NCBI GenBank assembly: GCA_039591655.1
Contig: JBDHDE010000055.1
Location: 1 to 16,851 of the forward strand
Source of the DNA: Gemmatimonadota bacterium
GTDB taxonomy: Bacteria > Gemmatimonadota > Gemmatimonadetes > Gemmatimonadales > GWC2-71-9
Direction: 5' to 3'
Length of the DNA: 16,851 nucleotides
Shown: piece by piece, positions 1 to 16,851 of the stretch
Position numbering within the stretch: the stretch's first letter is position 1
How the letters are laid out: the number at the start of each line of letters is the position of its first letter
The notes under the pieces: model-generated
Told to the model about the DNA's origin: nothing
What the model saw: only the letters and a program-made list of their open reading frames with translations
Database searches by the model: none
Made by a program: the position numbers and the translations under genes

Positions 1-1068
1 CCCCATGAAGAGGAGCAGCACCACCACGACGATGGCCACGGCCTGCAGCAGACTGACCAGAAAGCTGTTGATGGCGGTGGTCACGGCTCTCGACTGGAGG
101 GCGATGATCCCGACATCCATCCCCAGCGGGATCTGAGGCAGCAGCTCCCTGAACCTGGCGCCAACGGCGTCTCCCATCGTGACCACGTTGCCGTCGGGCA
201 CAGTTGAGATGCCGAGGCCGACGGCGGGCATTCCGTTGTACCGGATCAGCTGCTTCGCGGGGTCGCGGTAGCCCCGCCGGATGGTGGCGATGTCCCGCAG
301 GTAGATCTGAGCGCCGCCCGGATCGCCGGCAATCACCAGCGATCTGAAGTCATCCACGGAGTCGAACAGTCCGGTGGGGTCGATGGTGATGAAGTCGGGC
401 CCCACCTCGACGTGGCCGGCGTACGCGGCGAGGTTCCTGGACCGCAGGCCCTGCGCGACCGCCGCCATCGAGATGCCGAGCTGCGACATGCGGTCTCGGT
501 CCAACTCGACGTAGACTACCTCCGGCTGCATGCCGAAGAAGTCTATCTTCGCGACGTCCTGCACTAGCAGCAGCTCCCTGCGGAGCAGCTTGGCGGTCTC
601 GTAGAGCTCGGCGTAGCTGTACCCCTCGCCGTAGAGTGCGAAGAACACCCCGTAGACGTCGCCGAAGTCGTCATTGACGATGGAGGGCCCCGCACCGGGC
701 GGCAGCTCGCGCTGGGCGTCATTCACCTTGCGCCTGAGCTCATCCCATACCTGCGGGAGCGTCTCCTTGTCGAACCTGTCCTTGATCGTGGCGGTCACGA
801 TGGACAGGCCGCGCGTCGAGCGTGACTCCACCTCGAGGAGCTGCTTGAGCTTCTGCACGGCGGTCTCGATCACGTCGGAGACCTCCTCCTCGACCTCTGC
901 TGCAGATGCTCCCGGATAGGGGGTAATGATCAGAGCGTCTTTGATCGTGAACTCTGGGTCCTCGAGCCGGCCCATGCCACCGTACGAGATGATCCCGCCG
1001 ACGACCAGGACAACGGTCAGGACGAGCGTGGTAACGCGGTTCTCGATGCAGAATTGCGTGATCTTCAT
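1..1068 (-). CDS. RND efflux transporter permease subunit (AcrB/AcrD/AcrF family), N-terminal 356 codons; runs off the left edge of the window
   Basis: Not in the ORF track; translated by hand from ATG at 1068: MKITQFCIENRVTTLVLTVVLVVGGIISYGGMGRLEDPEFTIKDALIITPYPGASAAEVEEEVSDVIE...VWDELRRKVNDAQRELPPGAGPSIVNDDFGDVYG. This has TM1, the RLEDP and YPGAS.EVE motifs and DDFGD. It starts 3 nt after the MFP stop. Confidence 0.95.
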   Translation of the reverse strand, partial: MKITQFCIENRVTTLVLTVVLVVGGIISYGGMGRLEDPEFTIKDALIITPYPGASAAEVEEEVSDVIETAVQKLKQLLEVESRSTRGLSIVTATIKDRFDKETLPQVWDELRRKVNDAQRELPPGAGPSIVNDDFGDVYGVFFALYGEGYSYAELYETAKLLRRELLLVQDVAKIDFFGMQPEVVYVELDRDRMSQLGISMAAVAQGLRSRNLAAYAGHVEVGPDFITIDPTGLFDSVDDFRSLVIAGDPGGAQIYLRDIATIRRGYRDPAKQLIRYNGMPAVGLGISTVPDGNVVTMGDAVGARFRELLPQIPLGMDVGIIALQSRAVTTAINSFLVSLLQAVAIVVVVLLLFMG

Positions 1069-2212: not shown

Positions 2213-4639
2213 CTACTCCATCCCACGCTGGTTGAGGTAGGCTTGCAAGCGCTGGACGAATGCCTCCCGCGAGGCCTCGTCGAGGAAGAGATCGATCTGT
2301 CCGGCGGCTCGCTGCACTGCCATGAAATCCGTGATGAAGTCGTACAGGACGTTGGCAGCATCGAGCTCGGCGATGAGGGCGGTGTTCTGAGCGTCGAGCA
2401 GACTCAGGATGCCCGCGACGCCGCCCGCATACGCCGTCCGCACCAGCTCGTAGTTGCCGCGCGCCGCCTGGGCGGCATCCCGCGCCAGTTCGAGGCGCAC
2501 CCGAGACGACAGCAGGCGCTGCAGCGCATCACGCATCGCCTCCTCCACGCGCTGCTCCATCGAGCTGCGCTGATACTCGAGGCTGAAGAGGCTCTGTTGG
2601 GCCTGCTGCTTGGCCGCCGCACGCGAGCCGCTGCCAAACAAGAGGTAGCGTGCGCTGAGAGAGATCGTCCAACGCCACGGGTCGGCCTCCCCTTCCGGCA
2701 CCAGGCCGGGCGGCAGTCCCTCGCCCGAGAAGTCCGAGCCTGCCCCTCCCTCCGCCAGAGAGTTCGTGAGCCGCGCGTTGAGGAAGAACTCAGGCAGCCA
2801 GAAGGCACGGTTGGCCGCCGTGATCGCCCTGTCCTGAGCTCCCATGAGCGCGTCGATCGCCCTCAGCTCCGGTGACGTCTCGAGCGCGTCTGTGATCATG
2901 AAGTCCTCGAAGCCGCCGAAGCTCTGTGGGTCGTCGAGGAGCCTCGCCAGGGCATCCTCCGCCCACTGGATCACAGGCTCCTCGAACTCGCCTTCCGGGG
3001 TGTAGACCTCCTCGTCGAGCGGTCGGTACAGCAGGCGCTTGAGCCTGTTCTCGGCAATTGCCTTCGCCGCCACCGCACCGACCACCCCTTGTCGGTCCTT
3101 TGAGACCTGCGCCTCCCAGCGCAAGACCTCACCGGGAGTTGCCGCGCCCGTCTGGCGCCGCACTTCGGCCAGGTCCAGGTTCGTTCGGGTGAGCGAGAGG
3201 TTTTCCCGGCGAATCCGCTCATCGGTCTTGCGGCGCAAGACCGTCAGGTACGCATCAGCGGCCTCGAACGACACGTCCAGCCGCAGTGACGCGTAATCCT
3301 CCTCCCGAGCCCGCTGCAGCGACTGTTGGATGGTACGATCCGCCCAAGCCCGGTCGGCGAAGACCACCTGGGAGAGCCCCACCGAACCGCGTAGCAGCCG
3401 CTCGGGCTGTACGCCCAGGCTTCGGGCGGCCCGCTCCTCATCGATGATGCGGCCGGAAAAGGCGAGGTCCAACTGCGGCAGGAGCCGCGACGTCGCCAGC
3501 TTCACGTCCTGGGCCGCAGCCTGCAGCGCCCGATCGAACGACGCCAGGTCCTGGTTCTGCTCCAACGCCTCCTGCACCACGCCAAGCAGCGATTGCGGCT
3601 CCGGCGCGGCACCGGCCGCTTCATCGACGAGCAGTGCGTCGATGAGCATGGTCCACGACGGATATACCCCGATGGCGCGCGCCGTCTGCATGTTGACGAT
3701 CACGCGCTCCTGCTGCGAGAACACCACCTGCAGCTGCCCGGGCTGCTCGCCCTCGAGGATCTGTTGCACGGTGAGTGCCGTGAGACGGGCGAGCTGGAAC
3801 ATGAAGGAGTCTGGACGCCGCGCCAGCAGGATGCCCTTGCGCACCTCGGGCTCGCCGAACCAGGAGATGCTCGGGAGCCCCAGCTCGATCAGTCCACCCG
3901 CCAGCCGCTCGAACTCGGGTCCCGAGACTTGTGATAGCGGCAGCACGTACACCGCGTCCGCCTCGGCCGCCTCGATGGCGCCGAGGGCGGCTGCGACATC
4001 GTCACCCACCGGAATCACCACAGCCCGTGCGCCGGCTAGCGCCGCTCGCCCCTCGATGCGGTCGGCCATTCCCGGCAGCTCGGCGACGGCGTACTCACTG
4101 ACCAGGACTGCGAGGCGTTCGAAGTCGACCACCTCGGCCAGTGTTGCGATGTCTCGGTTCTCGGGTCGCGTCAAGTACACGAAGTTGGCCACCCCCGAGG
4201 CCGCTCCCGCCCGGGGGATTTCCTGCAGCGGTGGGTCCAGCACGAACGGCGCAACTACCGGCTTGCCCAGTCCCGGATGCTCGGCGGCCACCCGTCCGGC
4301 CAGGGGACCGATGGCCACGACTAGGTCAACGTCCGCTCGGCCAAGGAGCCGCTCGAGCGCCGCTCCGATCCCCGCGAGGGTATAGTCCCCTTCCATCCTC
4401 GCATGGGCGCCCATCTGCACCTCGAACCTGTTCTCGAGGAGCACCGACGTCTCCTGCTCGAGCTGATCGACGAGCTCGCCGTAGCGCATGGGCGGGCCGT
4501 CAGTCACGACGCCGATCGTCACAGGCCGTCGCTGCTGTGCGGCGGCCGTCGAGGGGACCGCCCCGGCTGCGAGCGCAACCAACGCCGCCGCAAGGAGGAT
4601 GCGGGCCGACGGAGCTTCAGGGCACACGGGAACTCCCAT
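2213..4639 (-). CDS. TolC-family outer membrane efflux protein with an N-terminal ABC-type substrate-binding-like domain (fusion)
   Basis: Signal peptide ending PSTAAA/QQ. About 300 aa alpha/beta domain (VDLVVAIGP, ADAVYVLP, QQILEGEQPGQL, VIVNMQTARAIGV). Then two OEP repeats (ALEQNQDL...LLPQLDL; SPELRA...FWLPEF; AYAGGVAGILSLLDAQ). ATG 4639 is preceded by a GAGG SD-like sequence. Confidence 0.88.
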   Translation of the reverse strand: MGVPVCPEAPSARILLAAALVALAAGAVPSTAAAQQRRPVTIGVVTDGPPMRYGELVDQLEQETSVLLENRFEVQMGAHARMEGDYTLAGIGAALERLLGRADVDLVVAIGPLAGRVAAEHPGLGKPVVAPFVLDPPLQEIPRAGAASGVANFVYLTRPENRDIATLAEVVDFERLAVLVSEYAVAELPGMADRIEGRAALAGARAVVIPVGDDVAAALGAIEAAEADAVYVLPLSQVSGPEFERLAGGLIELGLPSISWFGEPEVRKGILLARRPDSFMFQLARLTALTVQQILEGEQPGQLQVVFSQQERVIVNMQTARAIGVYPSWTMLIDALLVDEAAGAAPEPQSLLGVVQEALEQNQDLASFDRALQAAAQDVKLATSRLLPQLDLAFSGRIIDEERAARSLGVQPERLLRGSVGLSQVVFADRAWADRTIQQSLQRAREEDYASLRLDVSFEAADAYLTVLRRKTDERIRRENLSLTRTNLDLAEVRRQTGAATPGEVLRWEAQVSKDRQGVVGAVAAKAIAENRLKRLLYRPLDEEVYTPEGEFEEPVIQWAEDALARLLDDPQSFGGFEDFMITDALETSPELRAIDALMGAQDRAITAANRAFWLPEFFLNARLTNSLAEGGAGSDFSGEGLPPGLVPEGEADPWRWTISLSARYLLFGSGSRAAAKQQAQQSLFSLEYQRSSMEQRVEEAMRDALQRLLSSRVRLELARDAAQAARGNYELVRTAYAGGVAGILSLLDAQNTALIAELDAANVLYDFITDFMAVQRAAGQIDLFLDEASREAFVQRLQAYLNQRGME

Positions 4640-4796
4640 GGGACCTCTAGGTAGATGTCTGCCACTCGAAGAGCGAGCGGGTAAGATCACCCGGTCCGCC
4701 AGGGTCCGTCAACAGGCCACGATGGCCGTCATGGGCGGGTGGCCAAGCGGTCCCCATCCGGCGATCTTTGTGCGGCACACTTCAAGGAGCCTTGGC

Positions 4797-5482: not shown

Positions 5483-6889
5483 CTAAGTTCTCAGCTGCGC
5501 CAGGAAGTTGTCCAACAACCCGCTGGGGAAGGCGTCTCCCGCCTCCAGGGTTTCCCGGTGCCTCGCCAGCGCATCGGCCACTTCGTAGAAGTCCCGCGGC
5601 ACGCGTTCGGCTCGTGCTGCCCCTCCCTTGCGTGCCTCTATAGCCGACGTCCGCTTGAGGAGGTCGTCGAGCGCCTCCGTGTCGCGGCCCTTGATTATTG
5701 CCAGGGCAGCGCCGGCCAGGAGCAGGTGCGGCAGCGCCGAGCCGTCGGGGAGCCGGAACTCCACCGTCGCCGGCGTCACCACCCGGCCGGCCTCATCGGT
5801 GGTCACCACCGGCAGCCGGATGAGCGCCTGCCGGTCGTACTCGCCCCACACGATGGCGCTGGGTGCTTCCTTGGCCTGACGAATCCTCACGAAGGATCCC
5901 TCCACCCGGTTGCCGAACGCCATGAGGGCGCCGCCCAACTGCGCCAGTCCGCCGATTAGCCAGCGCGCGGGGTCAGAGAGTTCGCCCTCCCCGGTCTTGA
6001 CGTTCACGACCTCGCCGTCCTTCACGGGCGCGAGGTGGAAGTGGAGCCCGTTGCCGGCGTGGCCCTCGAGCATCATCGGTCCGGTGGCGCACCGCATGCC
6101 TTTGCGGTGCGCCAGGTTCCGCAGCACCCATTGGGTGAGGAGAATGCCGTCGGCCGCGACAGGTAGCGGCGCCAGGGCGAGCTCGATCTCATGCTGCTCC
6201 CAGATCACTCCCTCGGGCTCGCGGGCCTCGATGTAGCCCACCTCGCTGTGGCCGTACTTCACCGGCACGCCGAGGTCGGCCAGCAGGGCAAGGGCCTTGC
6301 GCCGCAGGCCCTCACCGAACACGAAGGGGGAGCTGGCGTGGTAGCCGCGATCGTCGGCGCCGTAGATGTCCGATTCGTCGCGCCGCTTGCCGAGGAAGTA
6401 CTCGACCTCCCCCAGCGCGTAGAGGTCCACTCCCGTCACCTCACGTAGCTGGGCGCACGCTCGCCGCAGGATGGTGTCGGGCGAGGCGGGCAGCGGGTTG
6501 CCCTCCGGGTCCGCATGGCCGCACATCAGCACTAGGGTGGGGAGTGACGCGAACGGGTCGAGGAACGCCGTGCGCACCCGGGGCCGCAGCACGATGTCCG
6601 ACTTGTCGGGGGGGATCCCCGCCCGAGGGAAGAGGCTCGAGCCGTCGGCACGCTCGCCACCGTCGATTATGTCCTTGAGTTGCGACGTCGAGCGCGGGAC
6701 GAAATCCAGCGTTTTGAGCCAGCCGTCACCGCCCACGTGCATCAGGCTCACGATCTGGACGCCGCGGCTGCGTACCAGGTCGACAACATCGTCCGCCGAC
6801 CAGGCAGAGCGCGGCTTGCCAAACTCGTCCTCGAGGCTCGTTCCCCGCGGAACCGGCGTCCGCGACCGCGGTTGCTGATCATCACTCAT
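5483..6889 (-). CDS. glnA: Glutamine synthetase family protein (GS type I-like)
   Basis: Motifs ADGSS, GEVEYF, RGYH, HSEVG, QHEIE, GNGLHFH, SFVR...EAP, DRQALIRLP and VEFRLPDG. ATG at 6889 overlaps the gatD TGA (ATGA). Confidence 0.88.
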   Translation of the reverse strand: MSDDQQPRSRTPVPRGTSLEDEFGKPRSAWSADDVVDLVRSRGVQIVSLMHVGGDGWLKTLDFVPRSTSQLKDIIDGGERADGSSLFPRAGIPPDKSDIVLRPRVRTAFLDPFASLPTLVLMCGHADPEGNPLPASPDTILRRACAQLREVTGVDLYALGEVEYFLGKRRDESDIYGADDRGYHASSPFVFGEGLRRKALALLADLGVPVKYGHSEVGYIEAREPEGVIWEQHEIELALAPLPVAADGILLTQWVLRNLAHRKGMRCATGPMMLEGHAGNGLHFHLAPVKDGEVVNVKTGEGELSDPARWLIGGLAQLGGALMAFGNRVEGSFVRIRQAKEAPSAIVWGEYDRQALIRLPVVTTDEAGRVVTPATVEFRLPDGSALPHLLLAGAALAIIKGRDTEALDDLLKRTSAIEARKGGAARAERVPRDFYEVADALARHRETLEAGDAFPSGLLDNFLAQLRT

Positions 6890-8277
6890 CGCCACACCCT
6901 CCCCAGGAACTCCTGGATCTCCGGCACACCGCCCTGAAAGATGAGATAGCCGTCGTGGGGCTCGCGCTCCGTTGTCTCACCGGCGATTGGCTCCATCATG
7001 AGCCGCTTCACCGCCTCCGGATCGTCGGGGTGCACCCCCAGAGCCCAACCCAGTTTGATGAACGCCACCTCGGGGAGCATGTTGGCCAGCGGCAGGACCC
7101 CCAGCTCCAGGATCTCCCGCCCCGTCTCGTACACGTGCATCTGCACGAAGCCCCACAATGTCTGGAGCGTCATGTACATGTGCACGCCCGCCGCATGCGC
7201 CCGCTCCAACGCAGGATAGATGATACGGTTCACGTGCCCCAGGCCCGTGCCCGCAATCACGATCCCCTTGTAGCCCTTCTCCACCAAGGCATCCACCACG
7301 TCGGCCTGCATACCCGGGTAGTAGTACAGCATCGTGACCCGCTCGTCGTAGGCCGCCTGCACGGTGACGTCGCGGTCGTCGCGGCGGTGGCGCCAGTCGT
7401 CCTTGAGCGGAACTATCTTCCCCTTCTCCACCATGGCCAGCGGAATGTCACCCAGCGTGCGGAAGGTGCTGCGGTAGGAGCTGTGCATCTTGCGCACTCG
7501 GGTGCCGCGGTGCAGCAGGTTGTAGCGGTCCGAGGTGGGGCCGAACATGCACACCACCACCTCGGCGATGGGCCCGTGGGCCGCCGTCCAGGTGGCGTTG
7601 ATCAGGTTCTGTGCGGCGTCGGAGGATGGCCGGTCGGAGGAGCGCTGGCTCCCCACCATCACGATGGGCACCGGCGGCCGCTGTACCATGAAGCTCAAGG
7701 CCGCCGCCGTGTGGTGCATGGTGTCGGTCCCATGGCCGATGACGACGCCGTGCCACCCGTCTCGGATCGCCTCCCCCACCTTCTCTGCCAGGATCAGGTA
7801 CTGCTCGGGCCCCATGTTCTCGCTGAACACCCCGAACAGCTTCTCGGTCTCCAGGTTGCAGATGTCGGCCAGCTCGGGCACCGAGCCGTACAGCTCCCCC
7901 GGGCTGAAGGCCGGGATCACCGCACCGGTGCGGTAGTCCAGCCGCGACGCGATGGTGCCGCCCGTGCCGAACAGCTTGACGCGGGGCTTCTCGGGATCCG
8001 TGGGGAACTCCTTCTCCGGGATCTTGTAGTGGGCCTCGCGGTATCCCGTCTCCTCGAGCTGGAGCACGGTGTCGTAGCGCAGGCCCACGTTGTAACCGCT
8101 CCCCAGCTTGAGCACGAGGTGCGCGTCGTCGCTGGTCTCGGAGCGCGGCAGGATGAGCCCCTCGAAGTCACCGCGCGTCGTGCGGGCCTTCACTTCGGAC
8201 CACACCTTCACGTCGAAGCGCTTCATGACCTCGAGCGTGGGGCCGCGGTAGCCTTTGTACTGGTCGTTGCCGCTCAC
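6886..8277 (-). CDS. gatD: Glu-tRNA(Gln) amidotransferase subunit D (glutaminase, asparaginase fold)
   Basis: GatD-specific N-terminal domain (FEGLILPR...LVLKLGSGYNVG), then GTGGTIASRLDYRTGAV, HGTDTM, GSQRSSDRPSSDA, RKMHSS, GTGLGHV and MLPEVAFIKLGWALG. The GTG start overlaps the gatE TGA (GTGA). Confidence 0.96.
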   Translation of the reverse strand: MSGNDQYKGYRGPTLEVMKRFDVKVWSEVKARTTRGDFEGLILPRSETSDDAHLVLKLGSGYNVGLRYDTVLQLEETGYREAHYKIPEKEFPTDPEKPRVKLFGTGGTIASRLDYRTGAVIPAFSPGELYGSVPELADICNLETEKLFGVFSENMGPEQYLILAEKVGEAIRDGWHGVVIGHGTDTMHHTAAALSFMVQRPPVPIVMVGSQRSSDRPSSDAAQNLINATWTAAHGPIAEVVVCMFGPTSDRYNLLHRGTRVRKMHSSYRSTFRTLGDIPLAMVEKGKIVPLKDDWRHRRDDRDVTVQAAYDERVTMLYYYPGMQADVVDALVEKGYKGIVIAGTGLGHVNRIIYPALERAHAAGVHMYMTLQTLWGFVQMHVYETGREILELGVLPLANMLPEVAFIKLGWALGVHPDDPEAVKRLMMEPIAGETTEREPHDGYLIFQGGVPEIQEFLGRVWR

Positions 8278-10379
8278 ACTACCGCCTCCGGCACCGCGTC
8301 CTCCAGTGCCTGCGCCAGCCGCTCTCGCACGACCCGCGGATCGAGCCGCCCCAGGAATCCCGGCATGACCGCCCCCATTGCCCAGCGCAGCACACCGTCC
8401 CGATCGGTGGTGGAGAGCGACTGCGCCTCCACGACCACGTCGGTGAGCCGTCGGGTAAGGGTGTCCTCGTCCTCGGCACGACGCCGGTGTGGGGCGAGGA
8501 TCTCTGCCACGGAGGCGTCGGGACGCTCGATCAGCCGATCGAGCAGCCGATCCAGCGCCTCGGGCCGGATCTCGCCCCCTTCGATAGCCCGGATCGCCGG
8601 GGCGAGCCGCGCCGGGTCGGGCATGGACGCGGGATCGGGCGTGAGCCGCCCTTGGCGCCGGTGGAACGGCAGCCGCTTCCGGAGCGCGTTGGCTACGCGA
8701 CGGGCGACGTCACCGGGCTTTGGCTCGAGCGCGTCGAACAGGTCGGCCCACGCGGCACGGGCCAGACAGCGCGCGGCTGTGTGGGCCAGCCCCATTCCCT
8801 CGTAGCGCGCTTCCCGTGCCCAGGGCGTCTCGGACAGCCGGTCGCGCACTTCCGCGACCACCGTATCGGCGATCGGTAGCGGTGGCGTGTCCGTATCGGG
8901 ATACATCCGGTCCGGCCCCGGCAGGATCCGCTCGAAGCCGTTGGTCCCGTCGTCGAACGCCTGGCGGGTCTCGGATGGCACGCCGGCGAGTGCGTCCTGC
9001 CCCCGAATCAGCACCTCGCGGGCGGCCGTAGCCGCGTCCATCTCCTGGCCCCACACCACGACCACCACGTCGCCGCGCTCGGCCTTGAGTTGCTTCCTGA
9101 GGTCGCGCCACTCCCGGGGGTCGAGCCCGTAATCGGTGATGTCAGAGTGGATCATGAACGGCCGGTGCTCCGGGCACGCGATCACCCGCACCCGGTCGGC
9201 GATCTCCCGCGCGAAGGTCACCCCCGGCTGGGTGCGGTGGGCCAGCAGCCCCCCGAAACCGGGCAGCCGCACCGCCGCGATGGTCTCACCCCGCTCCAGC
9301 GCGTCGCGGATGGGTTGGAAGTCGGAGTGGGCCAGCGCCGGGCCAGCGTCCGCGACCTTCGGTGAGACGTCCCAGGGAAGTCCCACGTCGGGGACTGCCA
9401 GCATGCTCGCCGTCACTCCGCGCCGCTCGAGCTCCGCCTTCACGCGCAACAGGTTGAGCTGGCGGAACGCCTCGGTATGAACCAAGAGCGGCAGAAACTT
9501 GTGGTTGTCCACCCCCTTGAGCTCCACGCGGCGGCCGCCGGCCACCGAAACGTTCGTGTCCTGCCGTGCCGCGCCGGGGCCACGACGCACCTTCCCCGTC
9601 GCCCGGGCGATCGCCGCCAGCAGCCGCGCTCCGGCCTGGAGCTCCCAGGGGGTGAGCAGGTCAGGCTCGGTCACCGTCTCGGTGAGGGGCATCCCCAGGC
9701 GGTCGGTCTTGAACGTGATGCGGTGCCCGATGTCGGTCACCTCGCGGCAGGCGTCCTCCTCCAGGGAGAGCTGCCGGATCCTGAGCTCCCGGTCGACCCC
9801 CAGCTCGGGGACCTTGAAGGGGATGACCCCCGTGAGCCCCACCATGGCCGTGCGCTGGAATCCCGTGGGGATCGAGCCGTCCAGGTACTGCTTGCGCATC
9901 ACGTGGAGCTCGGAGACCAGGTTGAGGTTACACAGCTGCGCGATCTCGATGGCCCCGCGGATGGCCTCCTCGTCGACCTCGAACGGCGGCGTGTCGTCCA
10001 TCTCGTAGGTGCACACCGTGCCCCGCTCCAGCCGGTACACGATCTCCTTCTTGGTCTTGAACTCCATGAGCGCGGTGCCGTCGTACTCCCCCAGCTCGCT
10101 CAGGGTGGGCCGCATGTGTCGCAGCACCTCGGCGTCGTACGTGGTGACCCGGTGCCCCGCGGGGCAGCGGCAGAACAGCTTCGAGCTGGTGAGGAGTTGC
10201 TGGTGGACCTCGAGACCGGACATGAACCCAACGGCCTCGTAGTCACCGGGCGTCATGTCGCCGAGGTCCTTGTCCCGGAAGTCCAGCGCCGGCTCCCGGC
10301 GGGGGTTCAGGTCGGCCGGGGGCCTGGGGCCGGCGGGCGGCTGCTCACCGGCGGCTGGCTCGTTTCGGTCGTTGCTCAT
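8274..10379 (-). CDS. gatE: Glu-tRNA(Gln) amidotransferase subunit E
   Basis: Motifs GLEVHQQL, KLFCRCP, MRPTLSELGEYD, MRKQYLDGSIPTGFQRT, LEEDACR, DRLGMPLTE, KVRRGPGAARQDTNVSV and VELKGV. It has an AspRS-like insertion domain (LPGFGGLL...IHSD), then VPSETR, LPGPDRMYPDTDTPP and a YqeY-like tail (MGAVM...GRLDP). These features identify GatE rather than GatB. Confidence 0.96.
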   Translation of the reverse strand: MSNDRNEPAAGEQPPAGPRPPADLNPRREPALDFRDKDLGDMTPGDYEAVGFMSGLEVHQQLLTSSKLFCRCPAGHRVTTYDAEVLRHMRPTLSELGEYDGTALMEFKTKKEIVYRLERGTVCTYEMDDTPPFEVDEEAIRGAIEIAQLCNLNLVSELHVMRKQYLDGSIPTGFQRTAMVGLTGVIPFKVPELGVDRELRIRQLSLEEDACREVTDIGHRITFKTDRLGMPLTETVTEPDLLTPWELQAGARLLAAIARATGKVRRGPGAARQDTNVSVAGGRRVELKGVDNHKFLPLLVHTEAFRQLNLLRVKAELERRGVTASMLAVPDVGLPWDVSPKVADAGPALAHSDFQPIRDALERGETIAAVRLPGFGGLLAHRTQPGVTFAREIADRVRVIACPEHRPFMIHSDITDYGLDPREWRDLRKQLKAERGDVVVVVWGQEMDAATAAREVLIRGQDALAGVPSETRQAFDDGTNGFERILPGPDRMYPDTDTPPLPIADTVVAEVRDRLSETPWAREARYEGMGLAHTAARCLARAAWADLFDALEPKPGDVARRVANALRKRLPFHRRQGRLTPDPASMPDPARLAPAIRAIEGGEIRPEALDRLLDRLIERPDASVAEILAPHRRRAEDEDTLTRRLTDVVVEAQSLSTTDRDGVLRWAMGAVMPGFLGRLDPRVVRERLAQALEDAVPEAVV

Positions 10380-13173: not shown

Positions 13174-13396
13174 GCTGCGGGGCCACCGAGTCATTGCCGT
13201 CGCCTTCTTCAAGTTGGGCACACGGCTGGCGCGGCTCACGGCACCGATTCTGTAGGGCATTCGCGCCAATATCGCCGAACAACTTGCCAGCGCCCGAGAA
13301 CGCTCCGTAGAGCGGCGTTTCGGTCCGGACCACGCCCCTCGTCGCTGCCACAATCCCCCGGATGACCCTCAGGCCGAGAACACACCCGATATGGGG

Positions 13397-13430
13397 TTGT
13401 GATATGACTAGTTATGACTATTATATGACC
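13397..13430 (+). promoter_or_regulatory. Putative TA promoter with overlapping operator repeats
   Basis: TTGTGA (13397-13402), a 16-nt spacer, then TATTAT (13419-13424). TATGAC occurs at 13403, 13413 and 13424. This is an AT-rich patch in otherwise GC-rich DNA. Confidence 0.6.
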
Positions 13431-13688
13431 ATGACGAAAGTCAGGATTGCGGAACTCAAGGCGAGGCTCAGCGAGTACCTGCGACGGGTTCGGCGGGGGC
13501 ACACTATCACCGTGCTGGATCGGGAAACGCCGGTCGCCCGCGTCGTTCCCTACACCGAGCCAGAGCCGCTCGGCGTGCGCGATCCTCTGGGACGACGGCG
13601 ACTTCAACAGGTACCGCTCCCACCACCCCTCAAACTGGACGTCGACGTCGTGGAGTTGCTCCTCGAGGAGCGGCAGGCCGAGAGGTGA
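13431..13688 (+). CDS. Type II antitoxin, Phd/YefM family (VapB partner)
   Basis: MTKVRIAELKARLSEYLRRVRRGHTITVLDRETPVARVVP is a typical Phd/YefM N-terminus, and the C-terminus is LLLEER. ATG 13425 and 13404 are alternative starts. Confidence 0.9.
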   Translation: MTKVRIAELKARLSEYLRRVRRGHTITVLDRETPVARVVPYTEPEPLGVRDPLGRRRLQQVPLPPPLKLDVDVVELLLEERQAER

Positions 13689-14101
13689 TCGCCTACCTCG
13701 ATTCGTCGGTGCTGCTGCGCATGGTGTTGGGCCAGCCACGCCGGCTGAAGGAGTGGTCGCGCATCAAGAGCGCGGTGTCGAGCGCCGTAGCCGAGGTCGA
13801 GTGCCTGCGAACCCTGGACCGACTTCGCCTGCGGGACGCCATTTCGGTTGAGGAACTCGCCCTGCGTCGAGAGGCCGTCTATCGCCTGACCGAGGAGATC
13901 GCCGTGGTAGAGCCAACGAGGACGGTGCTGCAGCGGGCTTCCCAACCACTCCCGACACCACTGGGCACCCTCGACGCGATCCACCTGTCCACCGCGATGC
14001 TCTGGCGCGAGACGAGGGCCCGGGATCTAGTGATGGCTACACACGACCAGGCGCTGGCGATTGCAGCTCGGGCCGTGGGCATTCCGGTGGTCGGCGCATG
14101 A
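13685..14101 (+). CDS. vapC: Type II toxin, VapC/PIN-domain ribonuclease
   Basis: PIN acidic residues in YLDSS, AEVE, TLDAIHLSTA and ATHD. The GTG start overlaps the antitoxin TGA. Confidence 0.92.
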   Translation: MIAYLDSSVLLRMVLGQPRRLKEWSRIKSAVSSAVAEVECLRTLDRLRLRDAISVEELALRREAVYRLTEEIAVVEPTRTVLQRASQPLPTPLGTLDAIHLSTAMLWRETRARDLVMATHDQALAIAARAVGIPVVGA

Positions 14102-14114
14102 AGCGCAGCTGAAT

Positions 14115-16412
14115 CTACTGCCTGCCCCGCCCCGCCAACTCCCCCTCCACGTACTCCTTCACCTGCCGCCCAATGGGGTTGTCGGGATGCAGCGCGATCA
14201 TGCGGTCGGCTAGCGTGAGCGCGCGGCGCAGCTCACCGCGCTTCACGTAGTGGTCGGCGAGGGCGAAGAGGAAGTCGATGTTCTCGGGCTCGACGTCGAG
14301 CGCCCGGCGCAGAGCGGCTTCCGCCTCCCGCATGCGCCCCGCCGACTGCAGCGCCAGTCCGTAGTTGTAGTGCACCCGGGCACGTTGCGGCATGCCTTCA
14401 GAAGCGCGTCCCAGGTAGTCGACCGCCTCGTCCAGGCGGTTCAACTCCGCCAGCAGCAGACCCAACGAATACGCTGCTTCGTATTGCTCGGGATACTCCG
14501 CTACGATCTCCCGGAGGAGCTGCTCGGCCTCCTCGTTCCGCCCCTGCGAGTTGAGCAGCACGGCGAGGTTCGCCTTGGCCGGGTAGAACAGATCGTCGAT
14601 CTCCACCGCCGCTCGGTAGTAGCGCTCCGCGCGCTCGGCGTCGCCCAGCCGTGTGTACAGGTTCCCCAGGTTGTGCCCCGCGAACGAGAAGTCGAGGGAG
14701 TACGCCATAGTGCGCTCGTACTCCGCGAGTGCCGCCGCGAGCTGCTCCTGCTGGTACACCTGGAGCATGCTGGGCGGCGCGTCGGCCAGGCGGGCGGCGG
14801 CCTCGATGCGCACCGCCTTCACCGGATCGAACAGCAGCGGCGAGACCAGCTCGACGTACCGCTCAGGTGTGGCCGCGCTCGCAGATGAGAGCGCAGTGTA
14901 GCGGATCAGTGCATCCTCGTCCTGCAGCGCCTGGTTGAATGCCTCGGTGCTCTCCTCGCCGGGGTAGCCGCTCAGGTAATCAAGGGCCGTGGCGCGGACG
15001 AGGGCCGGGTGCAGTGGGTCGCCCGCCATCCTGATCAGTTGATCCCGAGCCTCCAGCTGCCCCTGACGCGCCGCCGCGAACACCTGACCGTAGTGCGGTG
15101 TCCGCGCTTCGCCGTACCACTGGCGGTAGTAGCGCAGCGACCAGGCCAGCGGCTGGTCGTCGTGGCAGCCGCTCGCGGTGCAGGCGTTCGGCACGCCGAT
15201 CTCCTGCGACAGGTCCGGCCGCGGTAGCCGCATGCTGTGGTCGGCGCGCCAGTCCACCACCATGTACGGCTGCTCGACCATGTGGCACTTCACGCACAGG
15301 GCGCCGTCGCTGGGCTCGCCCTGATAAACCTTCTGGTGGAAATGGTGGTCGTAGCTGTCGTAGGTGTCGGCCCGGTGGCACTGCGTGCAGAGCGCGTTCC
15401 CCTCCTCGACGAGCTGCATGCTGTGCATGTCATGGCAGTCGCTGCAGCGCACGCCGTTCTTGTACATCTTGCTCTGCACGAACGACCCCCAGACGTAGAC
15501 CTCGTCGAGGATCTGCCCGTCGGCGTGGTACAGCCCCTCCCGCAACACGGCCGGCAGGACGTTGTCGAGCAGCCCGGGGCTGCGGTGGTCGTAGTCTCCC
15601 AGCTCGGTGCGCCGGGCGTGGCACGGGGCGCACAGCGCCACCTGCTCCGCATTGGTGACATCGGCCGTGGGGACCACGAGGTCGTAGTGCTCGACCTGCG
15701 GCCGGGCCATGGGCGGCAGCTCGGCCCACGCCACGTGGCGCGACCCCGGACCATGGCACGCCTCGCAGCTCACGTCGATCTCGGACCAGGTGGTGCTGAA
15801 GCTCCGCGACTCGGCGTCGTAGCCCTTGATCAGGTTGGTGGAGTGGCACTCGGCGCACATGCCGTTCCAGTTCTGGGCGCCGCGGGTCCAGTGCAGCCAG
15901 TCGTCGGGGGGGATATCCTGGCCGGGATAGAGGAAGAACCACTCCTCCCGCTCGGTATCCCACGCGACGGACAGCGCCTGCAACCGCCCACCCGGAAACG
16001 GAATCAGATACTGCTGCAGTGGCTCCCAGCCGAACGTGTGGGTGATCTCGTACTCCGCGCCTGCGCCGTCGGGGCCCTCGGCCCAGACGTAGTACTTGCC
16101 GTCCCGGCGGTAGAACCGCGTGGTGTCGCCGCGGTACACGAACACCGCATCGTCGAAGTCGCCCCGCACGGTGCTGTCGCTGGCCACCGTCATGGCGCGG
16201 TCGTGATCAGAGCCCTGCCAGGCTTCGTAGGCCGCCTCATGGCACGATATGCACTGCTCCCGGCCCACGAAGGTGGCCGGTTCCTCGACGACCGGTCCCC
16301 GCTCCGTCGCCAGCAACCGCTCCTTCACCAGATAGAGCGGCAGCGACAGCACGATCACCGCCGTGGCGACCACGCCGGCGGTGACCCAGCGGTCCAGGCC
16401 CTGGTCGCTCAC
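14115..16412 (-). CDS. Membrane-anchored multiheme c-type cytochrome with HEAT-like and TPR repeats
   Basis: N-terminal TM helix. Seven CxxCH motifs (CISCH, CAECH, CEACH, CAPCH, CSDCH, CTQCH, CVKCH) plus one CTASGCH. HEAT-like repeats (LVRATAL, LIRYTAL, AVRIEAA) and about five TPRs (NLGNLY, NLAVLL, SLGLLL, NYGLAL, ALADHY). The GTG start overlaps the Rieske TGA. Confidence 0.92.
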   Translation of the reverse strand: MSDQGLDRWVTAGVVATAVIVLSLPLYLVKERLLATERGPVVEEPATFVGREQCISCHEAAYEAWQGSDHDRAMTVASDSTVRGDFDDAVFVYRGDTTRFYRRDGKYYVWAEGPDGAGAEYEITHTFGWEPLQQYLIPFPGGRLQALSVAWDTEREEWFFLYPGQDIPPDDWLHWTRGAQNWNGMCAECHSTNLIKGYDAESRSFSTTWSEIDVSCEACHGPGSRHVAWAELPPMARPQVEHYDLVVPTADVTNAEQVALCAPCHARRTELGDYDHRSPGLLDNVLPAVLREGLYHADGQILDEVYVWGSFVQSKMYKNGVRCSDCHDMHSMQLVEEGNALCTQCHRADTYDSYDHHFHQKVYQGEPSDGALCVKCHMVEQPYMVVDWRADHSMRLPRPDLSQEIGVPNACTASGCHDDQPLAWSLRYYRQWYGEARTPHYGQVFAAARQGQLEARDQLIRMAGDPLHPALVRATALDYLSGYPGEESTEAFNQALQDEDALIRYTALSSASAATPERYVELVSPLLFDPVKAVRIEAAARLADAPPSMLQVYQQEQLAAALAEYERTMAYSLDFSFAGHNLGNLYTRLGDAERAERYYRAAVEIDDLFYPAKANLAVLLNSQGRNEEAEQLLREIVAEYPEQYEAAYSLGLLLAELNRLDEAVDYLGRASEGMPQRARVHYNYGLALQSAGRMREAEAALRRALDVEPENIDFLFALADHYVKRGELRRALTLADRMIALHPDNPIGRQVKEYVEGELAGRGRQ

Positions 16413-16851
16413 GCTCGAGTCACCTGCGCCGCCTCGAAGGCACGGCGCTTCCGCAGGTTCGCGGTGTTCACCTTCACGACACGGTTCTCGATGCGCACCT
16501 CGTAGAGATCCAGCGCCCGCGGCGCCGGCGGGTTCACCACGTCACCACGGATGTCGAACGCCGAGGAGTGGCAGGGGCAAACGAAGCGGTTGTCATCGGC
16601 CACCCAGGGCACCGTGCAGCCCAGGTGCGTGCACTCCCGGGAAACGGCGAGGAAGCCGCCGTCCTCGAGCCGCACGAGATAGAACCTCCCCTGCGGAAAC
16701 GCCGTCACGGAGCCCGGCTCGAACGCCCGCGTCGTCCGTCCGGGCCCGCGCCCGGCGGGGCCGGAGGAAGTCCACGAGGACCCACACGCCCTCGGCGACC
16801 ATGATGCCGAGTAGGCCGAGCCACGCCGTCCACAGGAAGCGGCGGCGCGGC
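16409..16851 (-). pseudogene. Rieske [2Fe-2S] protein of bc-complex type, 5'-truncated by the window edge and frameshifted near 16725 (pseudogene or assembly error)
   Basis: The downstream frame has ECTHLGC, CPCHSSAF and PPAPRAL. The Tat motif and TM helix (PRRRFLWTAWLGLLGIMVAEGVWVLVDFLRP) are in a different frame at 16850 to about 16727. Confidence 0.75.

Follow-up and report, generated by a model that had tools for sequence, protein, structure and literature searches.

A bacterial-type GatDE amidotransferase operon in a Gemmatimonadota genome that also encodes GlnRS: a candidate auxiliary route to Gln-tRNA

GatD and GatE, the two subunits of a tRNA-dependent amidotransferase, are encoded side by side on contig JBDHDE010000055.1 of the Gemmatimonadota bacterium assembly GCA_039591655.1. 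The window analysed here is this entire contig of 16,851 nucleotides (C55), and the host genome is a 149-contig bin of 3.31 Mb, 95.2% complete and 0.68% contaminated. On the basis of their sequences, the window proteins are confirmed as members of the GatD and GatE families. Papers published between 2008 and 2022 describe GatDE as an archaeal signature that is restricted to archaea (PMC2330236, PMC2811023, PMC9499178). No paper on a bacterial GatDE was found in literature searches, whose reach did not extend to most subscription papers and supplementary survey tables. The host already has a glutaminyl-tRNA synthetase (GlnRS), so GatDE probably serves either as an additional route to Gln-tRNA or in place of the bacterial amidotransferase GatCAB, which is missing. 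The reading that we favour, with evenly balanced confidence, is that bacterial-type GatDE would be an auxiliary Glu-tRNA(Gln) amidotransferase acting on tRNA with a U1-A72 first base pair.

In this type of enzyme, GatE phosphorylates the tRNA-bound glutamate with ATP, GatD frees ammonia from glutamine or asparagine, and a tunnel delivers the ammonia. In archaeal GatDE, glutamine and asparagine are used about equally as donors (PMC2330236). The operon in the window consists of three genes, the third being glutamine synthetase (GS)-like:

8274..10379, minus strand: gatE, 701 aa; kinase/amidation subunit of GatDE, bacterial-type branch, with a GAD insertion and a Yqey tail.
6886..8277, minus strand: gatD, 463 aa; asparaginase-like amide-hydrolysing subunit, its GTG start overlapping the gatE stop (GTGA).
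5483..6889, minus strand: GS-like gene, 468 aa; divergent and lineage-restricted, third in the operon, its ATG overlapping the gatD stop (ATGA).

An earlier note, made from the DNA letters alone, had described full-length gatE and gatD coupled by a GTGA overlap and had taken them for true GatE and GatD rather than GatB and AnsA, and both points are borne out. GatE scores 422.7 bits against TIGR00134 (cut-off 319.55) and 473.2 against NF003107 (cut-off 456), and it stays below the GatB models (at best 149 and 116, with cut-offs of 338 and 315). GatD reaches 485.4 bits against TIGR02153 (cut-off 324) and 476.2 against NF003217 (cut-off 310). The Pfam domains GatB_N, GAD, and GatB_Yqey are found in GatE, and GatD_N (PF18195) lies at the N-terminus of GatD; the two genes overlap at 8277-8274. 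GatD also passes the type I asparaginase subfamily model (365; cut-off 260.5) because it is an asparaginase homologue, and it is the sole GatD/asparaginase match in the host genome. The same note had overlooked the third gene, and its two-gene operon is extended accordingly.

The catalytic residues and tRNA-binding domains are intact in both subunits. Among solved structures, the best matches are archaeal GatDE from Pyrococcus abyssi (1ZQ1) and Methanothermobacter thermautotrophicus (2D6F), at about 300 bits for GatE and about 380 bits for GatD, and with these enzymes the window system shares both subunits, the domain order, the metal ligands, the Thr/Thr-Asp-Lys set, the insertion, and a basic loop at the first base pair. 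The catalytic set of GatD, correctly recognized in the earlier note, comprises T108 (in GGT), T184-D185, and K263. The metal motifs and the insertion claimed there for GatE were likewise found: H59, E207, and E234 align to His15, Glu157, and Glu184 of 2D6F, described as Mg ligands (PMC2330236), and the AspRS-like insertion measures 163 aa, against a span of 26-28 aa in GatB. In the archaeal enzyme this insertion is predicted to clash with aspartyl-tRNA synthetase, AspRS (PMC2330236). As placed by alignment with GatB, GatE has the GatE-type basic loop near the first base pair and no K-M-E turn, the element through which bacterial GatCAB recognizes U1-A72 (PMC2811023).

As far as sequences tell, this GatDE falls outside the archaeal pathway in its accepted definition, which calls for an A1-U72 substrate, a host without GlnRS, and an archaeal glutamyl-tRNA synthetase (GluRS); the system differs from its archaeal counterparts in its bacterial host, GlnRS, bacterial GluRS, and U1-A72 tRNA-Gln. 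The host aspS, gltX, glnS, and glnA products pass bacterial equivalog models. GlnRS scores 706.9 against its model (cut-off 425.8) and retains Tyr211, Asp212, Cys229, and Phe233, which we take to serve in glutamine selection; the alignment at position 255 is ambiguous. GluRS is present as a single copy of bacterial type (446 against gltX_bact, cut-off 290; 124 against the archaeal model, cut-off 402). The genome also encodes an asparaginyl-tRNA synthetase (AsnRS), one AspRS, a canonical GlnA, and one AsnB-like gene, and neither GatA, GatB, any amidase, nor AsnA was found in this 95.2% complete genome. The N-terminal motif of AspRS has the Leu form, which also occurs in non-discriminating enzymes and was not used as a discrimination marker. 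One option of the earlier note, that the host makes Gln-tRNA by the archaeal route, is contradicted as a sole route by glnS, the bacterial-type GluRS, and the U1-A72 pair of tRNA-Gln.

Both tRNA-Gln(UUG) and tRNA-Asn of the host have U1-A72. A pattern search of 52 genomes gave a sample of 30 loci, one per genome from 30 genomes, of which 28 are real tRNA-Gln genes (24 from GatE genomes) and two are chance matches. For tRNA-Gln(CUG), three 3' fragments occur in the host (G000 C6:95441, C61:15539, and C95:699) with no 5' half, and the full gene is unassembled; the fragments look like integration-site remnants.

The window proteins are not alone in bacteria. Relatives are encoded in at least 594 contig stretches, and all of the 80 loci kept are labelled bacterial, spread over Gemmatimonadota, Ignavibacteria, Aminicenantes, Myxococcota, Krumholzibacteria, Calditrichota, Cloacimonetes, and others. 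Among the matches listed, the nearest GatE with a name shares 82% identity and is labelled Gemmatimonadales, and the others, mostly Gemmatimonadota, are 61-69% identical; the host itself appears to belong to Gemmatimonadales. The expectation that bacterial homologues might already be annotated proved right: NCBI and JGI name bacterial members GatE (MBI2892183.1 from Deltaproteobacteria, MBN1551266.1, and records from Zixibacteria, Ignavibacteria, and Aminicenantes). The named bacterial-type branch contains the window protein, and the gatE-gatD order is common in it; of 93 loci, 84 have gatE ahead of gatD, and in the other nine no gatD is in view. At a threshold of 1e-30, 603 clusters (50% identity) match, GatB and archaeal GatE among them.

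A FastTree of 209 sequences, which excluded representatives outside 570-720 aa and loci below 560 aa, separated a branch of 124 members, among them all bacterial loci (0.976), from one of 78 members that includes the four archaeal-labelled clusters (0.879). IQ-TREE (-fast), run on 117 hand-picked sequences, gave support of 100 for the same split between bacterial-type and archaeal-type GatE. Most tips carry no taxon label, and archaeal sequences were sampled with a bias towards the query. The idea of a lone archaeal gene in this genome is thereby set aside, the nearest relatives being bacterial across many phyla. With GatB as the root, FastTree places it between the branches and IQ-TREE inside the bacterial side with support of 18 and 0, and neither a donor nor a direction of transfer can be named from these placements. 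The earlier note had postulated an old, ameliorated transfer. Amelioration is upheld by GC content at third codon positions (gatE 0.90 and gatD 0.92, against 0.83-0.91 in five housekeeping genes), and a transfer from archaea is plausible, with no support from the GatB root.

The bacterial branch carries its own near-invariant motifs, YLDGSIP, GAARQD, and KGV-P/D in place of the archaeal KGVQ. Next to the basic loop, Thr-Ile is replaced by Ala-Ala, and the Gln after KGV is lost. Heimdall- and Thorarchaeota-labelled GatE sequences at the archaeal edge share part of the YLDGS motif, and two Thermoplasmata-labelled sequences (P0201 and P0239) and one labelled Bacteroidetes lie on the bacterial-type side, in a clade adjoining the archaeal branch. 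These motifs therefore need not have arisen as adaptations to the tRNA of bacteria. The trees are compatible both with an archaeal origin by way of such a lineage and with older vertical descent. A long stem and a His-rich KGV variant set the Gemmatimonadota sub-branch apart, and in 12 genomes gatD is followed by glnS or the GS-like gene. The window GatE is an ordinary copy within its branch, and what it adds is the linkage to glnS, gltX, and the GS-like gene, together with the near-exclusion of GatB.

This linkage was followed in 201 genomes of the phylum, each at least 92% complete, of which 15 have GatE (G040 has a partial match). The tallies include five genomes marked as unpublished (G023, G142, G232, G257, and G177), none of which is a GatE genome and on which nothing else here depends; related genomes in these counts are not independent of one another. 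glnS is found in 14 of the 15 GatE genomes (two copies are cut at contig ends) and in 82 of the 186 others; within the host family, the figures are 9 of 10 and 16 of 89. GatB shows the reverse: 5 of the 15 have it, as do 151 of the 186 others (two of these 151 matches are fragments). Among 50 genomes behind the 80 distant loci, whose completeness is unknown, 44 have glnS and 17 have GatB. In G034, G144, G145, and G066, gatE, gatD, and glnS form a co-directional string (with a gap of about 1 kb between gatE and gatD in G145); gltX directly adjoins it in three of the four and lies about 8.5 kb off in G144, and tRNA-Ser(GCT) adjoins gltX in three of the four. At a Myxococcota locus, glnS and gatE stand head-to-head.

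A possible order of events can be proposed on these grounds. The host GluRS, descended from non-discriminating enzymes, would still charge tRNA-Gln with glutamate; GatDE would have been acquired with or beside glnS in a subclade of Gemmatimonadales, and its conversion of Glu-tRNA(Gln) would have permitted the loss of GatCAB. In present cells, GatDE may clear mischarged tRNA and open another route to Gln-tRNA at times when free glutamine is scarce, with asparagine as the donor, and the coupled GS-like gene may feed the same glutamine supply. GatDE would have to accept U1-A72 over A1-U72, and the bacterial-branch substitutions near the first-base-pair loop are candidates for this change. We favour the auxiliary role on Glu-tRNA(Gln) because of the glnS/gltX linkage, the retained insertion, and the nesting of the host GluRS with non-discriminating enzymes. 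Specifically, the host-clade GluRS nests with those of the GatB-only genomes G019 and G137, which, by the logic used in PMC3927822, must be non-discriminating. The host-family GatE genomes share one GluRS clade, joined by G132, which has glnS and GatB and no GatE. In the host clade, in family f3, and in Aminicenantes, GluRS is about 430 aa long (L006 478-1800), about 45 aa below the usual length, with a gap in the catalytic domain.

Several observations weigh against this role. Of 35 phylum genomes with neither a GatB nor a GatE domain (15 of them found by comparing two lists), 34 encode just GlnRS, which can therefore do without an amidotransferase. The tRNA-Gln of the host and all 28 sampled genes are U1-A72, unlike the A1-U72 recognized by archaeal GatDE (PMC2330236, PMC2811023). 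The GluRS discriminator (the position of Arg358 in the Tth enzyme) is Arg in every group, GatB-only genomes included, with one of the two copies in G083 as the exception; as a marker it is uninformative, and it offers no sequence sign that the host GluRS mischarges. A synthetase or GS gene lies within 6 kb in only 4 of the 80 distant loci, and no conserved third partner of GatDE was found in these loci. GatE and GatB occur together in the absence of glnS in G083, a single chromosome, and in G109, and G225 and G076 have GatE with no glnS match. Finally, a single event may account for the association of glnS with GatE in the host family, and glnS is common elsewhere in the phylum. With two GluRS genes (one with Glu at the discriminator), GatB, and GatE on its one chromosome, G083 (C1:915987 and C1:2203392) makes a good test case.

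The strongest competitor, possible though clearly less probable, is a dual Glu/Asp- or Asp-specific amidotransferase that replaced GatCAB and makes asparagine through Asp-tRNA(Asn). Because bacterial tRNA-Asn, like that of the host, is also U1-A72, a GatDE accepting this pair would lose its first-pair filter against Asp-tRNA(Asn). GatE and GatB are largely mutually exclusive, and bacteria that have GlnRS as well as AsnRS, such as Bdellovibrio, Deinococcus, and Thermus, retain GatCAB for asparagine synthesis (PMC4206432); the host resembles them in having an amidotransferase despite both direct synthetases and in its U1-A72 tRNAs, and asnS is present in 62 of 66 GatE genomes. The host enzyme differs from GatCAB in having GatD instead of GatA/GatC, in the GatE insertion, in lacking the K-M-E turn, and in scoring under all GatB cut-offs. 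AsnA occurs in none of 44 genomes with GatE and without GatB, but its absence says little, because 23 of 26 amidotransferase-free genomes also lack it (it is present in 3 of those 26 and in 1 of 10 in a third group). The only full AsnB-like gene of the host best fits an exopolysaccharide-type amidotransferase model, yet it passes TIGR01536 (387.8; cut-off 267.1). The tail motif GXXAXG, tied to the rejection of Asp-tRNA(Asn) (PMC2811023) and carried by both PDB chains, is missing from the host GatE and from 121 of 124 bacterial-type sequences; with the strict motif in 3 of 124 bacterial-type and only 17 of 78 archaeal-type sequences, it is a weak marker, and the insertion is retained. Gene neighbours give this reading the GS-like gene after asnA in G156 and aspS before gatE in L046, against which glnS and gltX are linked far more often than aspS.

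Repurposing outside translation is unlikely. It would consist of the ATP-dependent amidation of a non-translational substrate, or of GatD acting as an asparaginase or glutaminase with the GS-like protein in nitrogen recycling. GlnRS and AsnRS make GatDE redundant in translation, GatD is the only asparaginase homologue in the genome, and the bacterial branch has its near-invariant motifs and, in eight genomes, the GS-like coupling. Such a change of function is hard to reconcile with the retained Yqey tail, insertion, and basic loop, with the glnS/gltX linkage, and with the lack of an extra partner conserved across the 80 distant loci. The GS-like gene itself is present in only 5 of the 201 phylum genomes. 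The eight genomes where it is coupled to gatD are six of the genus, the host counted, and G190 and G139. The host protein matches Gln-synt_C with 133 bits and falls under every GS equivalog cut-off (152 for the GlnA equivalog, cut-off 429), its conserved Glu/His/Arg motifs align with the true GlnA of the host, and its C-terminal tail is shorter. In the one phylum genome that has it without GatE, G156 (L242/L246), it directly follows asnA, and that genome is without GatB as well.

That GatDE is the main route to Gln-tRNA, with the host GlnRS inactive or really charging glutamate, is quite improbable. The joint travel of glnS and gatDE and the failure to find GatCAB would suit it; the host GlnRS, however, scores 657 bits to E. 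coli GlnRS with the four residues named above kept, and among the GatE genomes checked, no clear case of GatDE as the sole route was found. Candidates for such a genome fell away: G171 and G017 turned out not to have GatE, G072 and G098 gave no gltX matches, and G225 is cut at gatE by a contig end. G098 has two matches of GatE strength (C21:249022 and C31:18991).

An assembly chimera or an archaeal contaminant contig, for which nothing was found beyond the fact that the genome is a 149-contig bin, is ruled out by synteny in relatives, by an overlap with contig C83, by three bridged junctions, and by the low contamination, in agreement with the bacterial host and absence of a chimeric join assumed in the earlier note. 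The overlap is as follows:

1..91, minus strand: contig-end overlap of 91 bases with C83, inside an RND gene; on C83, glnS follows the RND gene at a distance of about 1.5 kb.

Joined, C55 and C83 give the order gatE-gatD-GS-like-omp-tolC-mfp-RND-glnS, and the identical order is found on single contigs in G002, G004, G008, and G010 with protein identities of 80-95%; G007 shares both ends of the order, with no matches to the efflux genes. Contigs from sequencing runs, which may be of the source sample, bridge the GS-like/gatD, gatD/gatE, and gatE/sulfatase junctions; among the run contigs listed, none covers the whole window, and the omp/GS-like junction is unbridged in the pieces shown. On C83 (L001, 1471-4542), the RND gene reads in frame into glnS as a single open reading frame (ORF) of 1023 aa; because the genes are separate in relatives, this is probably a local assembly or frame error.

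The flanks are bacterial (OEP/TolC, RND adaptor, beta-barrel, sulfatase, HAD) and GC content stays at 0.62-0.73 across all 500-base windows, so that the bacterial neighbourhood and the lack of a compositional break reported from the letters alone are both upheld. Elsewhere in the window, an 825-aa TolC-family protein (2213-4690, minus strand) carries an N-terminal extension of about 350 residues without a family match and is conserved in the genus. A Phd antitoxin and PIN-domain pair (13362-14101, plus strand) is an ordinary type II toxin-antitoxin module. A multiheme cytochrome with HEAT and TPR repeats (14115-16708, minus strand) is preceded by a small ORF with what is presumably a Rieske-like motif.

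The view that GatDE is confined to archaea underlies scenarios of the last universal common ancestor and arguments on tRNA co-evolution. A large bacterial branch of GatDE facing U1-A72 tRNAs allows the recognition of the first base pair to be tested directly. The rule that a genome with GlnRS and without gatCAB has a discriminating GluRS (PMC3927822) is weakened by this branch as well, because such genomes may hold GatDE.

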